Sequence record: PV464739.1
Direction: 5' to 3' (one strand)
Length of the DNA stretch: 64,000 nt
From: Escherichia phage RCIP0363
Shown: positions 53,514 through 57,340 of the stretch, piece after piece
How the letters are laid out: every line of letters begins with the position of its first letter
How positions within the stretch are numbered: position 1 is the stretch's first letter
Position numbers and translations under genes: made by a program
The notes under the pieces: model-generated
What the model was told of the DNA's origin: nothing
The model's input: only the letters and a program-made list of their open reading frames with translations
The model's database searches: none

Positions 53514-53598
53514 TCAAAAAGGTGAGCTAAATGCTTGCCTTTTCTTTTATCAATACTTATACTCTTTTCATCAAGACTAACAAGCGAGGTGAATAATG
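53514..53598 (+). promoter_or_regulatory. Conserved intergenic element, copy 1 (hairpin plus promoter-like box)
   Basis: aaaaaggtgagctaaatgcttgcctttt followed by tacttatact and ttcatcaag; identical 30-bp core also at 54775. Confidence 0.45.
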
Positions 53599-53913
53599 AT
53601 TTACTTAGGCATCGACCAGGAACAAGACGAGCGGTTAGGAAGCGTGTTAAACGTAGAATTAAACACAGCTGTACACGTCAAGCCTTGGCCAGAGGCGCAC
53701 CCCGACGTAGTTGTACCCGTCGCACCTTGGACGCGTTACGTGGCCATTGATAATGACGGCCTTGTCCATTGTTACTCAGAAAAGCCGACATACTTTGAAA
53801 AGTATCACCAATGGCTTATGACTGGATGGGCAAAGGTGCGCTGTTGCGGCGAAGTCGGTCTGGAAGGATGGGGCTTCGAGGCTAGTGAATCGTGTGTCGA
53901 GGTGCAATTATGA
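53596..53913 (+). CDS. Hypothetical early protein
   Basis: ATG with gaggtga SD; shares a short motif with the protein at 56437. Confidence 0.5.
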   Translation: MIYLGIDQEQDERLGSVLNVELNTAVHVKPWPEAHPDVVVPVAPWTRYVAIDNDGLVHCYSEKPTYFEKYHQWLMTGWAKVRCCGEVGLEGWGFEASESCVEVQL

Positions 53914-54128
53914 ATGCCGCGCTGGGTAAGCTGTCTTTCAACAAACGCAATGAGCTGCGCATGGTGTCTCGTTTTCAGTTTTTATTGAATGCCATGTCAA
54001 GCGTTGCCATAACAATGCTTCGCGCCGATTGCCCTGCTGAAAAGCGTGAGACTTTATTCAAACGCCACCAACAATTACGAAATGCTGCTTATAAACTGCA
54101 GCAATATGCTATGGAGTATGCAAAATGA
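53910..54128 (+). CDS. Hypothetical early protein
   Basis: ATG at 53910, ATGA overlap. Confidence 0.45.
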   Translation: MNAALGKLSFNKRNELRMVSRFQFLLNAMSSVAITMLRADCPAEKRETLFKRHQQLRNAAYKLQQYAMEYAK

Positions 54129-54517
54129 GAATGAAGCGTTGCCCTTACTGCCACGATGTAATGCATCTTCCGCATGAAGAGTTCGTGCAGCATATGGCTA
54201 ATTGTGATAAGAATCCTAATAGCGAAAGCCAGCTTGAAGAAAGAATGTTTCTGGTGTCATTCAAGTATTCAGCTTATGACACGCAACTGGCTTACGGTGC
54301 GAGCGGTGCACCAAGTGCTGTTTACAGACCGATGACATTGAGAAGTGACATTGACTCGATGCAGCTTGCGGCCTGGATTAACGTTAAGGAAGGCATAACA
54401 TGGCACTTTATCGCGCGCATCCAATCCCAGATTCTACAAATCAAGCGCGAATACAACCGTGACATTACTGAAGTGAAGGTGCTGTCCATAACGCCAATGA
54501 ATAAGGAGTTGCCGTGA
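54125..54517 (+). CDS. Hypothetical early protein with Cys/His cluster
   Basis: N-terminal CPYCHDVMHLPHEEFVQHMANCD. Confidence 0.5.
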   Translation: MRMKRCPYCHDVMHLPHEEFVQHMANCDKNPNSESQLEERMFLVSFKYSAYDTQLAYGASGAPSAVYRPMTLRSDIDSMQLAAWINVKEGITWHFIARIQSQILQIKREYNRDITEVKVLSITPMNKELP

Positions 54518-54774
54518 ACAAGGGTCCGATGACTAAGCTGGCCGTTGCCGCGCGGAAGCTTCGACAAGCCGTTAATGGGTCGCGGCCCGTGGCGTTAACA
54601 CTCGACGATGCAAAGGCACTGGTAGAGCTACTCGACGAGCACAACCGACGCAAGAATCTGGAGAACACATTACGTTGGCGAGTCACTCCAGCAGGACGGG
54701 AGAGCGAGAAGAAAGCTTACTTGCGGCGTAAGCTAAGGTCAGTCGGCCTCCACGAAGAGGCGAAGAATATTTAA
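54514..54774 (+). CDS. Hypothetical early protein
   Basis: GTG start with aaggag SD; internal ATG at 54529 is an alternative. Confidence 0.45.
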   Translation: MNKGPMTKLAVAARKLRQAVNGSRPVALTLDDAKALVELLDEHNRRKNLENTLRWRVTPAGRESEKKAYLRRKLRSVGLHEEAKNI

Positions 54775-54854
54775 TTCAAAAAGGTGAGCTAAATGCTTGC
54801 CTTTTTATTTACCTGTATTATACTTAGTTCATCAAGCAAAGGAGAGTGATTATG
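54775..54854 (+). promoter_or_regulatory. Conserved intergenic element, copy 2
   Basis: Same 30-bp core as copy 1, followed by tattatactt and ttcatcaag. Confidence 0.45.
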
Positions 54855-55037
54855 AGTACCGAAGTCCACAACGCATCAGCCTTGGCAAGCTTTTACCGTA
54901 ACAAAGGCGTGTCGCTCGTTAAAACGCCGCAAGGAATGTTATTCTTTGGCACACGCTTCCTGAAAGCATCAGAGCGTGAAACGCTGTCCAAGTTCGACCA
55001 GAAAACATTACAAGCAGTTTGGAGAAGACAACAATGA
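54852..55037 (+). CDS. Hypothetical early protein
   Basis: ATG at 54852 after ggagag SD. Confidence 0.45.
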   Translation: MSTEVHNASALASFYRNKGVSLVKTPQGMLFFGTRFLKASERETLSKFDQKTLQAVWRRQQ

Positions 55038-55270
55038 CATCAAACCTTAAGGCCCGTTTATTATTCATCAAGCCGCATGTGCCGTATAAGATTAGCAAGC
55101 GCACCTGGCTTAATATTTACAACCGCAGCGGCGACCGTTGCTTGTACAAGGCGAAGCGACGCAAGAAGGTATATTTAAAAGCGGTGATGTCGCAACCCGT
55201 CGATGCATTCAACATCGGCGAAAATGAATTGTCAATCGGCTATCAAATTGAACTCGGAGTAAAGAAATGA
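55034..55270 (+). CDS. Hypothetical early protein
   Basis: ATG at 55034, ATGA overlap. Confidence 0.45.
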   Translation: MTSNLKARLLFIKPHVPYKISKRTWLNIYNRSGDRCLYKAKRRKKVYLKAVMSQPVDAFNIGENELSIGYQIELGVKK

Positions 55271-55770
55271 AAATTGAACAACTCGAAGCAGTACTGGAAA
55301 TGGCTGTAAAGGCTGGCGCAATCAAAAGCTATCGTCGCGAGAAGTCTGATGATGTTGCGCACTTTTGTCGCAACTTCTATATCGTCGGCAACCTTAACGA
55401 CCACTACACCATCGAGTGGTATACCAACATGATGACGCTTAAGTCGCGCACCATGGAGCTTTGGTGTGATGACGTTTGTCTTTCCCATAGCCACCCGTGC
55501 TACGACGTTGCGTTGGCATTCTATTACGGAAGCCGTCAACCTGTCGCCCACATCGGTGAGAAGCATGAGCATCTTAAGGCGCAACCAGAGGAATCAATGG
55601 AAGGCTGGATTGAATGGGCTGGCGGCAAGAATCCGGTGCCTGGTAAGTTAGTCCGCGTGACGGTAAGGCAAGGAACAAAGACGATTTTTCCTTCAAAATC
55701 CGAAAAATGGCGTTGGAGTCATAGAGAATCGGGATACGACATCATGGCCTATCGCGTCGTGGAGGAGTAA
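55267..55770 (+). CDS. Hypothetical early protein with NPVPGK C-terminal domain
   Basis: C-terminal domain shared with the protein at 56921. Confidence 0.5.
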   Translation: MKIEQLEAVLEMAVKAGAIKSYRREKSDDVAHFCRNFYIVGNLNDHYTIEWYTNMMTLKSRTMELWCDDVCLSHSHPCYDVALAFYYGSRQPVAHIGEKHEHLKAQPEESMEGWIEWAGGKNPVPGKLVRVTVRQGTKTIFPSKSEKWRWSHRESGYDIMAYRVVEE

Positions 55771-56111
55771 TGGAAGAGCAAGAAGGCCGTGAGCTAACGT
55801 TCGACGAGCAAATGAAAGAGATTCAACGCACATCGCCGCTGCGCGGTAAGGTTGTTGACATTGAGGCGAGTGAATCCAATCTCACCCAGTGGCGGCTCAA
55901 GTGCACCAGCACAAGCAAGGATATGTTAAGCTTCAAAGTCGGTCAGACTTATTTGCTTTATGAGGCAAAAGGACTTATTATTGATGGAAGGCAAATTGTC
56001 TTCACGGTCGTCAACGGCATGCGTTGGTTCGTGAAGCGTGATGTCGAGGGCCGTGACATGTTTGTCGCAGGCTTTCCAGAAGCAAGATTCCAATTGGAGA
56101 AGGTTAAATGA
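55770..56111 (+). CDS. Hypothetical early protein
   Basis: 113-aa ORF with ggagg SD. Confidence 0.5.
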   Translation: MEEQEGRELTFDEQMKEIQRTSPLRGKVVDIEASESNLTQWRLKCTSTSKDMLSFKVGQTYLLYEAKGLIIDGRQIVFTVVNGMRWFVKRDVEGRDMFVAGFPEARFQLEKVK

Positions 56112-56440
56112 AATTGAAATGGTATGTGGACCCTGAGCCAACAGGCCAATACAGGTCATTCCAACGTCGCGGCTGGCCGACTTGTTACAACGGTAATCCA
56201 GATAAAGAAGACTGCGAACTGCTTGCCGCCATCGTAAGCCTCGACCATCACGGCTATGAAGGCCACTACGCGAGAGCAACCAACCTTCGGCTCAAGGTGC
56301 GCATCCATTTCAAGGTCGCAGGCGAGGACCGCACCGGACTCTCCAAGGAAGAGTTCAGCAGCATCGCTGAAGCAAAGGCATGGCTCAAGGCGTTCTATAA
56401 GAACAACCCTAAATTCTATCCAACTAAGGATGCATCATGA
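56108..56440 (+). CDS. Hypothetical early protein
   Basis: 110-aa ORF, ATGA overlap. Confidence 0.5.
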   Translation: MKLKWYVDPEPTGQYRSFQRRGWPTCYNGNPDKEDCELLAAIVSLDHHGYEGHYARATNLRLKVRIHFKVAGEDRTGLSKEEFSSIAEAKAWLKAFYKNNPKFYPTKDAS

Positions 56441-56937
56441 CTAACAATAGACAACTTGTCAAGTTCGAAGGTAAAGAATACGAAATAGACGCTCGTGCAC
56501 GATTCGTTGCGCGCGATTCTAATGGCAGCGTTTGGGTGTATGAGAAGAAACCTTCATGGGTAAGCAAACATGGACAGTGGGGATTTGAAATCGGTGAATC
56601 ATCTTGGTGTCAGCGCATCGACCAAGTAAAGACGTTTGAAAAGAACCGACCAGCATCAATTGATTCTCTTCAAGAAGTCGAATCAATCAAAATCCAAGCG
56701 CCATCGAACGATAAACAATACGCAGTCGGGCAGCGTGACATCGAGCAACTCGACGAGGGCGGATATTATACGCGCCACATCTATGCCATGACTCATGAAG
56801 GTCTTTACAGCAAGTCGGACATCGCTGCTGAACTGGCCCATCGTGACTTGCAAATTGACATGCTGCGTCTAGCACTTGAGAAGCAAACGCAAATTGCTAT
56901 TGAAATTTTGGAGAAGTTAAATGATACAACGTTATGA
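56437..56937 (+). CDS. Hypothetical early protein
   Basis: 166-aa ORF; N-terminal motif FVARDSNGSVWVYEKKPSWVSKHGQW resembles the protein at 53596. Confidence 0.5.
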   Translation: MTNNRQLVKFEGKEYEIDARARFVARDSNGSVWVYEKKPSWVSKHGQWGFEIGESSWCQRIDQVKTFEKNRPASIDSLQEVESIKIQAPSNDKQYAVGQRDIEQLDEGGYYTRHIYAMTHEGLYSKSDIAAELAHRDLQIDMLRLALEKQTQIAIEILEKLNDTTL

Positions 56938-57340
56938 CCTGACATACGATGTAGCGACAGAAGATTTCGACATCACTCCTGTTCCAGAAAGTCACGAAGG
57001 ACGTTTTGTTGCATATGAGGACTACGTCGCGCTGGAAGCGAAATATGGTGAAGCGCAACGCGAGTTGGTTGCATTGCGCTCACAAGTCCGTGATGCGTCG
57101 GCGCTCGTTAAGCAGTTACACGACGTTGTTGCTACTATAGGCGTGGATGTTGATGCACCGAAGGAGGAAGCGTGGACCGTGTGGCATGGTGGCGATAATC
57201 CGGTGCCTGGGAAGATGGTTGAATTCAAAATGCGTAACGGCGAACGTGGCAATGATCAAGTTCATTCGAGTGTTTTGCATTGGGATCACCTCGGAGAAGC
57301 TTGGGACGTTGTTGCTTATCGGGTCATTAAGGAGGGGTGA
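56921..57340 (+). CDS. Hypothetical early protein with NPVPGK C-terminal domain
   Basis: WTVWHGGDNPVPGKMVEF...AYRVIKEG parallels the C-terminus of the protein at 55267. Confidence 0.5.
   Translation: MIQRYDLTYDVATEDFDITPVPESHEGRFVAYEDYVALEAKYGEAQRELVALRSQVRDASALVKQLHDVVATIGVDVDAPKEEAWTVWHGGDNPVPGKMVEFKMRNGERGNDQVHSSVLHWDHLGEAWDVVAYRVIKEG

Follow-up and report, generated by a model that had tools for sequence, protein, structure and literature searches.

Mosaic evolution is well known for the accessory genes of phages, as in Botstein's module theory and the Hendrix-type mosaicism of the lambdoid nin/ea regions. Here we consider four small genes of Escherichia phage RCIP0363 that lie on the + strand of a stretch of 64,000 nucleotides (nt) from record PV464739.1 (the window), and refer to their open reading frames (ORFs) as A (53596-53913, 105 amino acids (aa)), B (55267-55770, 167 aa), C (56437-56937, 166 aa) and D (56921-57340, 139 aa), the start of D overlapping the end of C by 17 nt. 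The DNA between 53000 and 58000 is 86-92% identical to Wifcevirus myophages of Escherichia coli and Shigella (ECO71P1, FEC19, AV128, WFH, Mansfield and BASEL Bas98-101), and by sequence the window is that of a Wifcevirus, a ~68 kb E. coli myophage. ORFs A-D are annotated coding sequences in related GenBank phages, and every gene under this match carries the annotation 'hypothetical protein' in every record. The closest described proteins are PHROG families of 'unknown function'. The modules at the C-termini of B and D match phrog_9174, phrog_26870, phrog_16943 and phrog_11995 (E between 1e-5 and 6e-14), which, unlike the module, are clusters of whole proteins that contain it at positions 6-77 of 157, 103-165 of 236, 107-162 of 166 and 75-125 of 131; none of the four defines or names the domain itself. 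A matches phrog_1972 (Queuovirinae/Seuratvirus proteins, e.g. AJT60563 of CAjan) over its whole length, whereas C corresponds to only its central ~50-75 residues, fused to another cassette.

Our comparisons show the predicted proteins A-D to be products of mosaic accessory genes built from at least five autonomous cassettes, namely the N-domain of B (phrog_21861), a β-module of ~55-60 aa in B and D that we term W-GG-PV, a domain of phrog_1972 type in A and C, the core of C (phrog_34533) and a helical stalk. The original prediction, made from the letters alone, had proposed that B and D share a C-terminal module, that A and C share a pair of peptide stretches, and that such domain reuse marks a family of host-interaction factors with a common binding module and variable effector parts. 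The first likeness is borne out: the ORFs and peptides are in place on the + strand, and BLASTP aligns B with D over 56 aa without gaps (23/56 identical, 41%; E=5e-14 pairwise). The match is also significant in the all-against-all comparison that had been proposed as a check (E=1.6e-11 against all 464 ORFs of the window of at least 40 aa), where just one other non-self pair is significant. A hidden Markov model (HMM) of the module, searched against the six-frame translation of the window, finds exactly two copies, in B (residues 106-167; 55582-55767) and in D (residues 79-139; 57155-57337), both at E~1e-28, and phrog_9174 covers residues 102-166 of B (E=5.8e-14) and 78-137 of D (E=2.8e-11). 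The module consensus reads GW-I-x-W-x-GG-[EN]-[NC]-P-V-P-G-x-x-V-x-V-x-x-R-x-G ... W-x-H ... D-I-I-A-Y-R-V, and both copies contain the motif W-x-x-W-x-GG-x-x-P-[VA] ... W ... [DE]-[IV]-[IV]-A-Y-R-[VI]. Twelve positions are nearly invariant in an alignment of 42 sequences (W10, W13, G15, G16, N18, P19, P21, V25, W46, A57, Y58 and R59), all of them kept in B and D. Structure prediction, also proposed at the outset, gives a confident compact β domain for the module of D alone (AlphaFold2 (AF2); predicted local distance difference test score (pLDDT) 85.8, predicted template-modelling score (pTM) 0.71). At the DNA level the two copies are alike only over a 54-nt stretch at 74% identity, with a 14-nt exact core, AATCCGGTGCCTGG, within the EEAWTVWxGGxNPVPGKM motif; since the likeness is so limited, the duplication of the module is old rather than recent.

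The module is far more widespread than these two proteins. An exhaustive profile search returned 2,996 clusters, defined at 50% identity, with E<=1e-3, of which 191 reach E<=1e-10. The module may be a protein on its own (57-70 aa), stand at either end or in the interior of a longer one, or be repeated in arrays of up to four. Statistics on partners, charge and arrays were taken from the best 145 representatives, a set biased to high-scoring multi-copy proteins. In this set 98 of the 145 carry two to four copies, mostly abutting, 144 match phrog_9174, none contains a hydrophobic segment of signal-peptide or membrane type, and the mean net charge of the 273 module copies is -2.9. Most module proteins have no recognisable partner domain; among Pfam domains the recurrent partners are DUF3310 (4), DUF6378 (4), dGTP_diPhyd_N (3) and dATP-dGTP_PPHyd (1), and among the PHROG labels of partners are 'nucleotide kinase', 'dATP/dGTP pyrophosphohydrolase' and 'endolysin; inhibits RNA polymerase'. 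Searches with tblastn place the module in phages of Escherichia, Klebsiella, Edwardsiella, Pantoea, Salmonella, Sinorhizobium, Caulobacter and Campylobacter, and a scan of bacterial genomes gave a single match, on a 365-bp Xanthomonas contig. Two very long proteins, P0162 (915 aa) and P0175 (1031 aa), carry three C-terminal modules behind a large N-terminal region without a Pfam match (in P0175 the scans gave only a weak match to phrog_16683), and the module is thus not confined to small phage proteins.

The second likeness, between A and C, begins from a much shorter alignment, with 12 of 27 residues identical in BLASTP (44%; E=4e-6 pairwise), which at the scale of the window amounts to only ~1e-3 and by itself is borderline or suggestive. 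It was nonetheless upheld by profile methods. Residues 2-104 of A match positions 5-105 of phrog_1972 at E=6e-23 and residues 7-83 of C match positions 32-109 at E=1e-10; hhalign, run on a profile of A with four Queuovirinae homologues and a profile of 22 orthologues of C, aligns the two families over 49 columns with 96% probability (E=3.8e-9); and the Seuratvirus homologues in phrog_1972 align with both A and C. With these profile matches and the family alignment added to BLASTP, the predicted common domain is solid. The joint alignment further suggests conservation past the quoted motif, in a Cys and an E-[VI] near the C-terminus of A, although only the E is strictly invariant and this is the weaker part. 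The A copy occupies residues ~25-77 (53668-53826) and holds RYVAIDNDGLVHCYSEKPTYFEKYHQW, the phrog_1972 domain as a whole making up the entire protein, and the C copy (residues ~2-90; 56442-56705) is an in-frame cassette that follows directly on Met-Thr. Tblastn with A found matches in 66 phage records, those in Wifcevirus at 69-97% identity and the distant relatives, mostly Queuovirinae, below 45%.

The remaining parts of B, C and D belong to other families or folds. The N-domain of B (residues 1-104; 55267-55578) covers positions 1-104 of the 104 in phrog_21861 (E=1.3e-52). In C, the A-like N-domain is followed by a core (DKQYAVGQRD...YYTRHIYAMTHEGLYSKSDIAAELAHRD) and a helical tail (together 56706-56934), residues 94-163 covering positions 11-82 of the 90 in phrog_34533 (E=5e-16). 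The core of ~50 aa (residues ~91-145; 56706-56870), which contains YYTRHIxAMTxEGLxSKSDIAAELAHRD, also forms the N-terminus of the otherwise unrelated proteins P0144-P0149 (108-256 aa), whose C-termini differ, some with long helices and two with a helix-turn-helix-like segment, AAKALGAAPSTLHRVM; by sequence it is a third mobile module. D joins a variable N-terminal β-hairpin (residues 1-33, of low confidence in the AF2 model) to a long central helix (residues ~34-73; 57020-57139) and the W-GG-PV module, the helix being predicted with high confidence (H35-73, pLDDT 90-97) and possibly forming a coiled-coil stalk. No Pfam or NCBIfam family scored above its curated cut-off for A-D or for ten long module proteins, and the PADLOC defence profiles gave no match to A-D and only spurious sub-threshold matches to two relatives. 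In the PDB, phmmer and hmmsearch run with D, B and the profiles of the module and of the A/C domain found no match below E~1 except an insignificant one of the B N-domain to a tetratricopeptide repeat (TPR)-like protein (0.0055). A structural-neighbour search with the module found no fold similarity, BFVD giving only other uncharacterised module proteins, and a literature search found nothing on the A-D genes or on the module; the BASEL paper covers Wifcevirus biology and not the 53-58 kb region.

Comparison with five GenBank Wifceviruses and one metagenomic contig shows, at the level of predicted products, that these cassettes are gained, lost, duplicated and exchanged at or near domain boundaries, always in frame and with only short microhomology at the junction. 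Mansfield lacks exactly 55580-55764 of the window, i.e. the module of B, its locus (L008) aligning to 55034-55579 and then from 55765 onward; the Mansfield orthologue is accordingly the N-domain alone (L008 4687-5013), a protein of 108 aa that is 90% identical and ends in ...HLKEKVE. FEC19 and RCIP0319 lack exactly 56442-56705, the N-domain of C, which is present in only seven GenBank Wifcevirus records; in these two phages the C orthologue starts MT-DKQYAVG... and the core is a free-standing protein of 73-77 aa. In HansTraber (L009 6464-7129) and in P0143 the helical tail of C is replaced by another, β-rich tail of ~70 aa. D of ECO71P1 carries two abutting modules (198 aa), and D orthologues in a large database range from 132 to 231 aa. 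The metagenomic Wifcevirus (L010, a 67 kb Logan contig of SRR25399866) has a 1,024-nt deletion, corresponding to 56127-57150 of the window, that takes out most of the gene at 56108, all of C and the N-part of D, with 3-4 nt of ATG-type microhomology at the junction. Six codons of gene 56108 are thereby joined to the D module (56108-56126 to 57151-57340), yielding a stand-alone module of 70 aa, MKLKWY plus the D module (P0001; L010 5001-5213).

Identities also disagree from one segment to another. Across five related genomes the B N-domain is ~90% identical and the B module 42-94%; between D and its FEC19 counterpart the N-part is 97% identical and the module 62%. The 95 single-module orthologues of D comprise 5 N-types, 3 helix types (two main sequence types and one singleton, swapped among orthologues) and 10 types of module core, which occur in 26 combinations. 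N-types and helix types alike are found with several different core types, a reassortment of segments that cannot have arisen without recombination. In 85 of the 95 the module begins with one and the same type of 18-residue stretch (EEAWTVWxGGxNPVPGKM). More broadly, 53-58 kb in its entirety is a hot spot at which sister genomes differ in gene content, with extra genes inserted in the cluster; in RCIP0319 (L007), for example, three extra ORFs of 47, 158 and 275 aa lie between 4282 and 5710, and an ORF of 134 aa (L007 8002-8406) stands where the C N-domain region would be.

Domain reuse, as originally predicted, is therefore real, and it goes beyond simple paralogy, as the modules adjoin unrelated partners (phrog_21861, phrog_34533 and the D helix) and relatives show clean in-frame insertions and deletions. 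A single family with one common binding module is not what emerged, as B/D and A/C carry two unrelated modules, and the supposed variable effector parts have no catalytic or otherwise recognisable signature, being autonomous cassettes that stand alone in other phages. The host-interaction role in that prediction is likewise only putative.

The explanation that best accommodates these observations as a whole, to which we give a probability of roughly 0.55, combines mosaic cassettes with a non-catalytic docking module. From its tandem arrays, its fusions to enzymes and its hypervariable core, which make non-enzymatic docking the most plausible role, we infer that W-GG-PV is a cytoplasmic ligand- or protein-binding domain. 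The first ~18 residues of the module (EAWTVWxGGxNPVPGK) would form a nearly invariant scaffold, probably serving as a crossover point as well, and specificity would be set by the next ~30, a hypervariable surface that switches type. Tandem arrays would give the domain a higher valency, as would its display, in D, on a helix that is probably dimeric. In such a scheme the module would anchor its partner domain at some hub in the infected cell, for instance the replication or nucleotide-supply machinery or a host factor, a job that appears the most likely because the module is fused to nucleotide-metabolism enzymes in other phages; these fusions, and the presence of genes for a primase and a VapE-like protein in the operon, weakly suggest such a target. 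The B N-domain and the D N-terminal hairpin would be the cargo, and the A/C domain may be a second, rarer module that follows the same logic.

Several points weigh against this docking scheme. Binding by the module is a reading of its architecture, most module proteins have no recognisable partner domain, and fusions to nucleotide enzymes make up only ~10% of the 145 representatives, with the bias of that set as described. The acidic net charge speaks against simple binding of DNA or RNA and names no specific target, the hypervariable core could reflect relaxed constraint together with recombination instead of specificity switching, and a dimeric D helix is assumed.

Only tentatively would we extend docking to the proposal that W-GG-PV is an undescribed and very widespread intracellular specificity domain of phages, in which a constant scaffold bears a cassette-switchable recognition surface whose types are swapped in an arms race with host factors or immunity. 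The module would then be a cytoplasmic counterpart of a receptor-binding domain, with at least ten types in Wifceviruses, and elsewhere it may target nucleotide-metabolism enzymes to the same hub. Wifceviruses are reported to be blocked on E. coli K-12 by cryptic-prophage-encoded restriction (bioRxiv 10.1101/2024.09.12.612763), which would be a candidate opponent in such a race.

A competing view, of limited but real plausibility, is that the module associates with itself, so that arrays and fusions simply build multimers as an oligomerisation or scaffold domain would. The frequency of abutting tandem copies fits this view, as do the joining of the module in D to a long helix typical of coiled-coil oligomers and the lack of any ligand-like structural neighbour among those searched; however, ten discrete core types on a constant scaffold fit a recognition surface better than a homotypic interface, and stand-alone versions of 57-70 aa exist. 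We consider it rather improbable that the module instead binds nucleotides or nucleic acid, so that nucleotide-metabolism enzymes and the cargo of B and D would be brought to DNA, or the pool of deoxynucleoside triphosphates (dNTPs) would be sensed. The recurrent fusions to DUF3310, DUF6378 and dATP/dGTP diphosphohydrolase domains point in this direction, as do the conserved Trp, Tyr and Arg residues, the operon common with the primase and VapE-like protein, and weak matches of two representatives to Tudor_Coilin; the last, however, are not localised to the module, fold similarity is wanting in the searches described, and the mean net charge of -2.9 is unfavourable. DNA binding by the module was in fact rated unlikely because it is acidic on average.

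With regard to origin, it is very unlikely that the likenesses reflect plain paralogy within the genome, that is, an old duplication of whole genes whose non-common parts diverged with no exchange of modules. Each pair does lie within 4 kb on one strand, and the B and D modules, at 41% identity, have diverged in DNA as an old duplication would predict, but the non-common parts match different self-standing families (phrog_21861 and phrog_34533), sister genomes hold the same genes with and without the module at clean boundaries, the segments of D orthologues are reassorted combinatorially, and unrelated phages carry the module in many further architectures. No more credible is a role for the conserved stretch chiefly as a DNA-level recombination linker kept for reasons other than protein function. 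The exact 14-nt core within the 54 similar nt would suit such a linker, as would the fact that crossovers in D orthologues apparently fall at the invariant first 18 residues; conservation is nevertheless seen at the protein level, at 35-45% aa identity, in phages of Sinorhizobium, Caulobacter, Campylobacter, Klebsiella and Edwardsiella, where DNA identity is unlikely to be retained, and it is the whole unit of 55-60 aa that folds confidently in prediction and recurs as arrays. Chance or low-complexity matching of unrelated small ORFs, for which only the short A/C alignment (27 aa, E~1e-3 with all window ORFs as search space) could speak, is refuted by the window-scale significance of B/D, the independent matches of both pairs to the same PHROG profiles, the hhalign result for A/C, and thousands of module members with a consistent motif and a confident fold.

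A-D lie towards the end of an operon that begins with a primase gene. Structural genes occupy ~1-28.5 kb on the + strand, and replication genes, including those for a Pol III alpha-like polymerase, an SNF2 helicase and a UvrD/PIF1-like helicase, occupy ~29.5-45.8 kb on the - strand. The operon of interest starts on the + strand in a divergent intergenic region with a sigma-70-like promoter (TTGACT N16 TATACT; 46265-46292), its first gene (46322) encoding a RepB-like primase and a further gene (48714) a VapE-like protein, after which ~30 small ORFs extend to 57789 on the + strand, with A-D in that tail. Repeat and folding analysis identified two copies of a ~62-nt terminator/promoter cassette on the + strand (84-94% identical), which divide the small-gene cluster into units 53596-54774 and 54846-57789. 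The first copy (53514-53575) is intergenic and lies directly upstream of A, the first gene past it, and combines a terminator hairpin with a sigma-70-like promoter (TTGCCT N17 TATACT); the second (54776-54836) heads the unit with B, C and D. Each forms a hairpin of 11-12 bp followed by a U run, a predicted terminator (z=-4.1 versus shuffles), with the -35 element (TTGCCT) in the descending hairpin arm and TATACT as the -10 element. Sigma-70-like promoters are thus predicted at 46265, 53535 and 54797, the last two inside the repeated cassette. The pattern TTGCCT N16-17 TATWMT occurs four times in the window against 0.04 expected, and the total count of promoter-like sites in the window is not above that of shuffles (26 versus 21.5±4.2). 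Cross-matches indicate that the terminator/promoter cassettes are kept in other Wifceviruses. The 'early' status of A-D is only inferred, from operon position, the sigma-70-like promoters and the gene for the RepB-like primase.

In the ~640 nt past the end of the operon (57790-58430) the only ORFs are short (40-60 aa) and doubtful as coding sequences; further downstream (58551-58597) lie several strong matches to sigma-70-like promoters, and the linear GenBank record of ECO71P1 begins or ends at about window position 58337. The sole other significant pair of paralogues in the window lies at 14295-14762 and 15713-16210 (33% identity over 141 aa, E=1e-25); each of the two matches phrog_2420 (label 'tail fiber protein'), and the pair represents a small structural protein in two diverged copies, 1.4 kb from each other. 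Rfam gave no match within the window.

Most small non-structural ('early'-type) phage genes carry the label 'hypothetical', and several of those studied here split into a few reusable domains. W-GG-PV, with ~3,000 clusters and neither a Pfam or NCBIfam entry, a solved structure nor a detectable fold neighbour, is a case in which a domain definition would benefit the annotation of thousands of proteins from phages and prophages. The Wifcevirus variants further constitute a natural swap set, with and without the module in B, with one or two modules in D, and with ten core types, that could be used to find the target. As the shuffling of domains among phage accessory genes is already well known, the gain would be incremental unless such a target is found.

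How the locus compares with known systems may be judged from three sides. The DUF551 (PF04448) and DUF550/dATP-dGTP pyrophosphohydrolase domains are likewise small Trp-containing domains of phages and prophages whose combinations are shuffled; among the module proteins, P0242 appears to bear a DUF551-like C-terminus (WMPLPAPP) and others bear pyrophosphohydrolase domains, whereas B and D have no Pfam match to DUF551 or to any family and their motifs differ. In working principle only, W-GG-PV resembles LysM, SH3b and choline-binding repeats, which are also short, non-catalytic, β-rich units that occur singly or abutting with varied partners. No similarity of sequence or fold to these was found, and they are extracellular binders of the cell wall, unlike the 145 module representatives with their lack of signal-peptide or membrane-type segments; a secreted or cell-wall-binding repeat was rejected for W-GG-PV on this ground and on the location of the genes among those for intracellular replication. 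The closest parallel is classical mosaicism itself, with which the locus has in common the in-frame gain, loss and swapping between close genomes, junctions with a few bases of microhomology, and a setting in a cluster of small non-structural genes. It differs in that the units exchanged here are sub-genic domains with a conserved intragenic crossover motif and not whole genes. The domain itself is unnamed, and the phenomenon is classical phage mosaicism at the level of the sub-genic domain.

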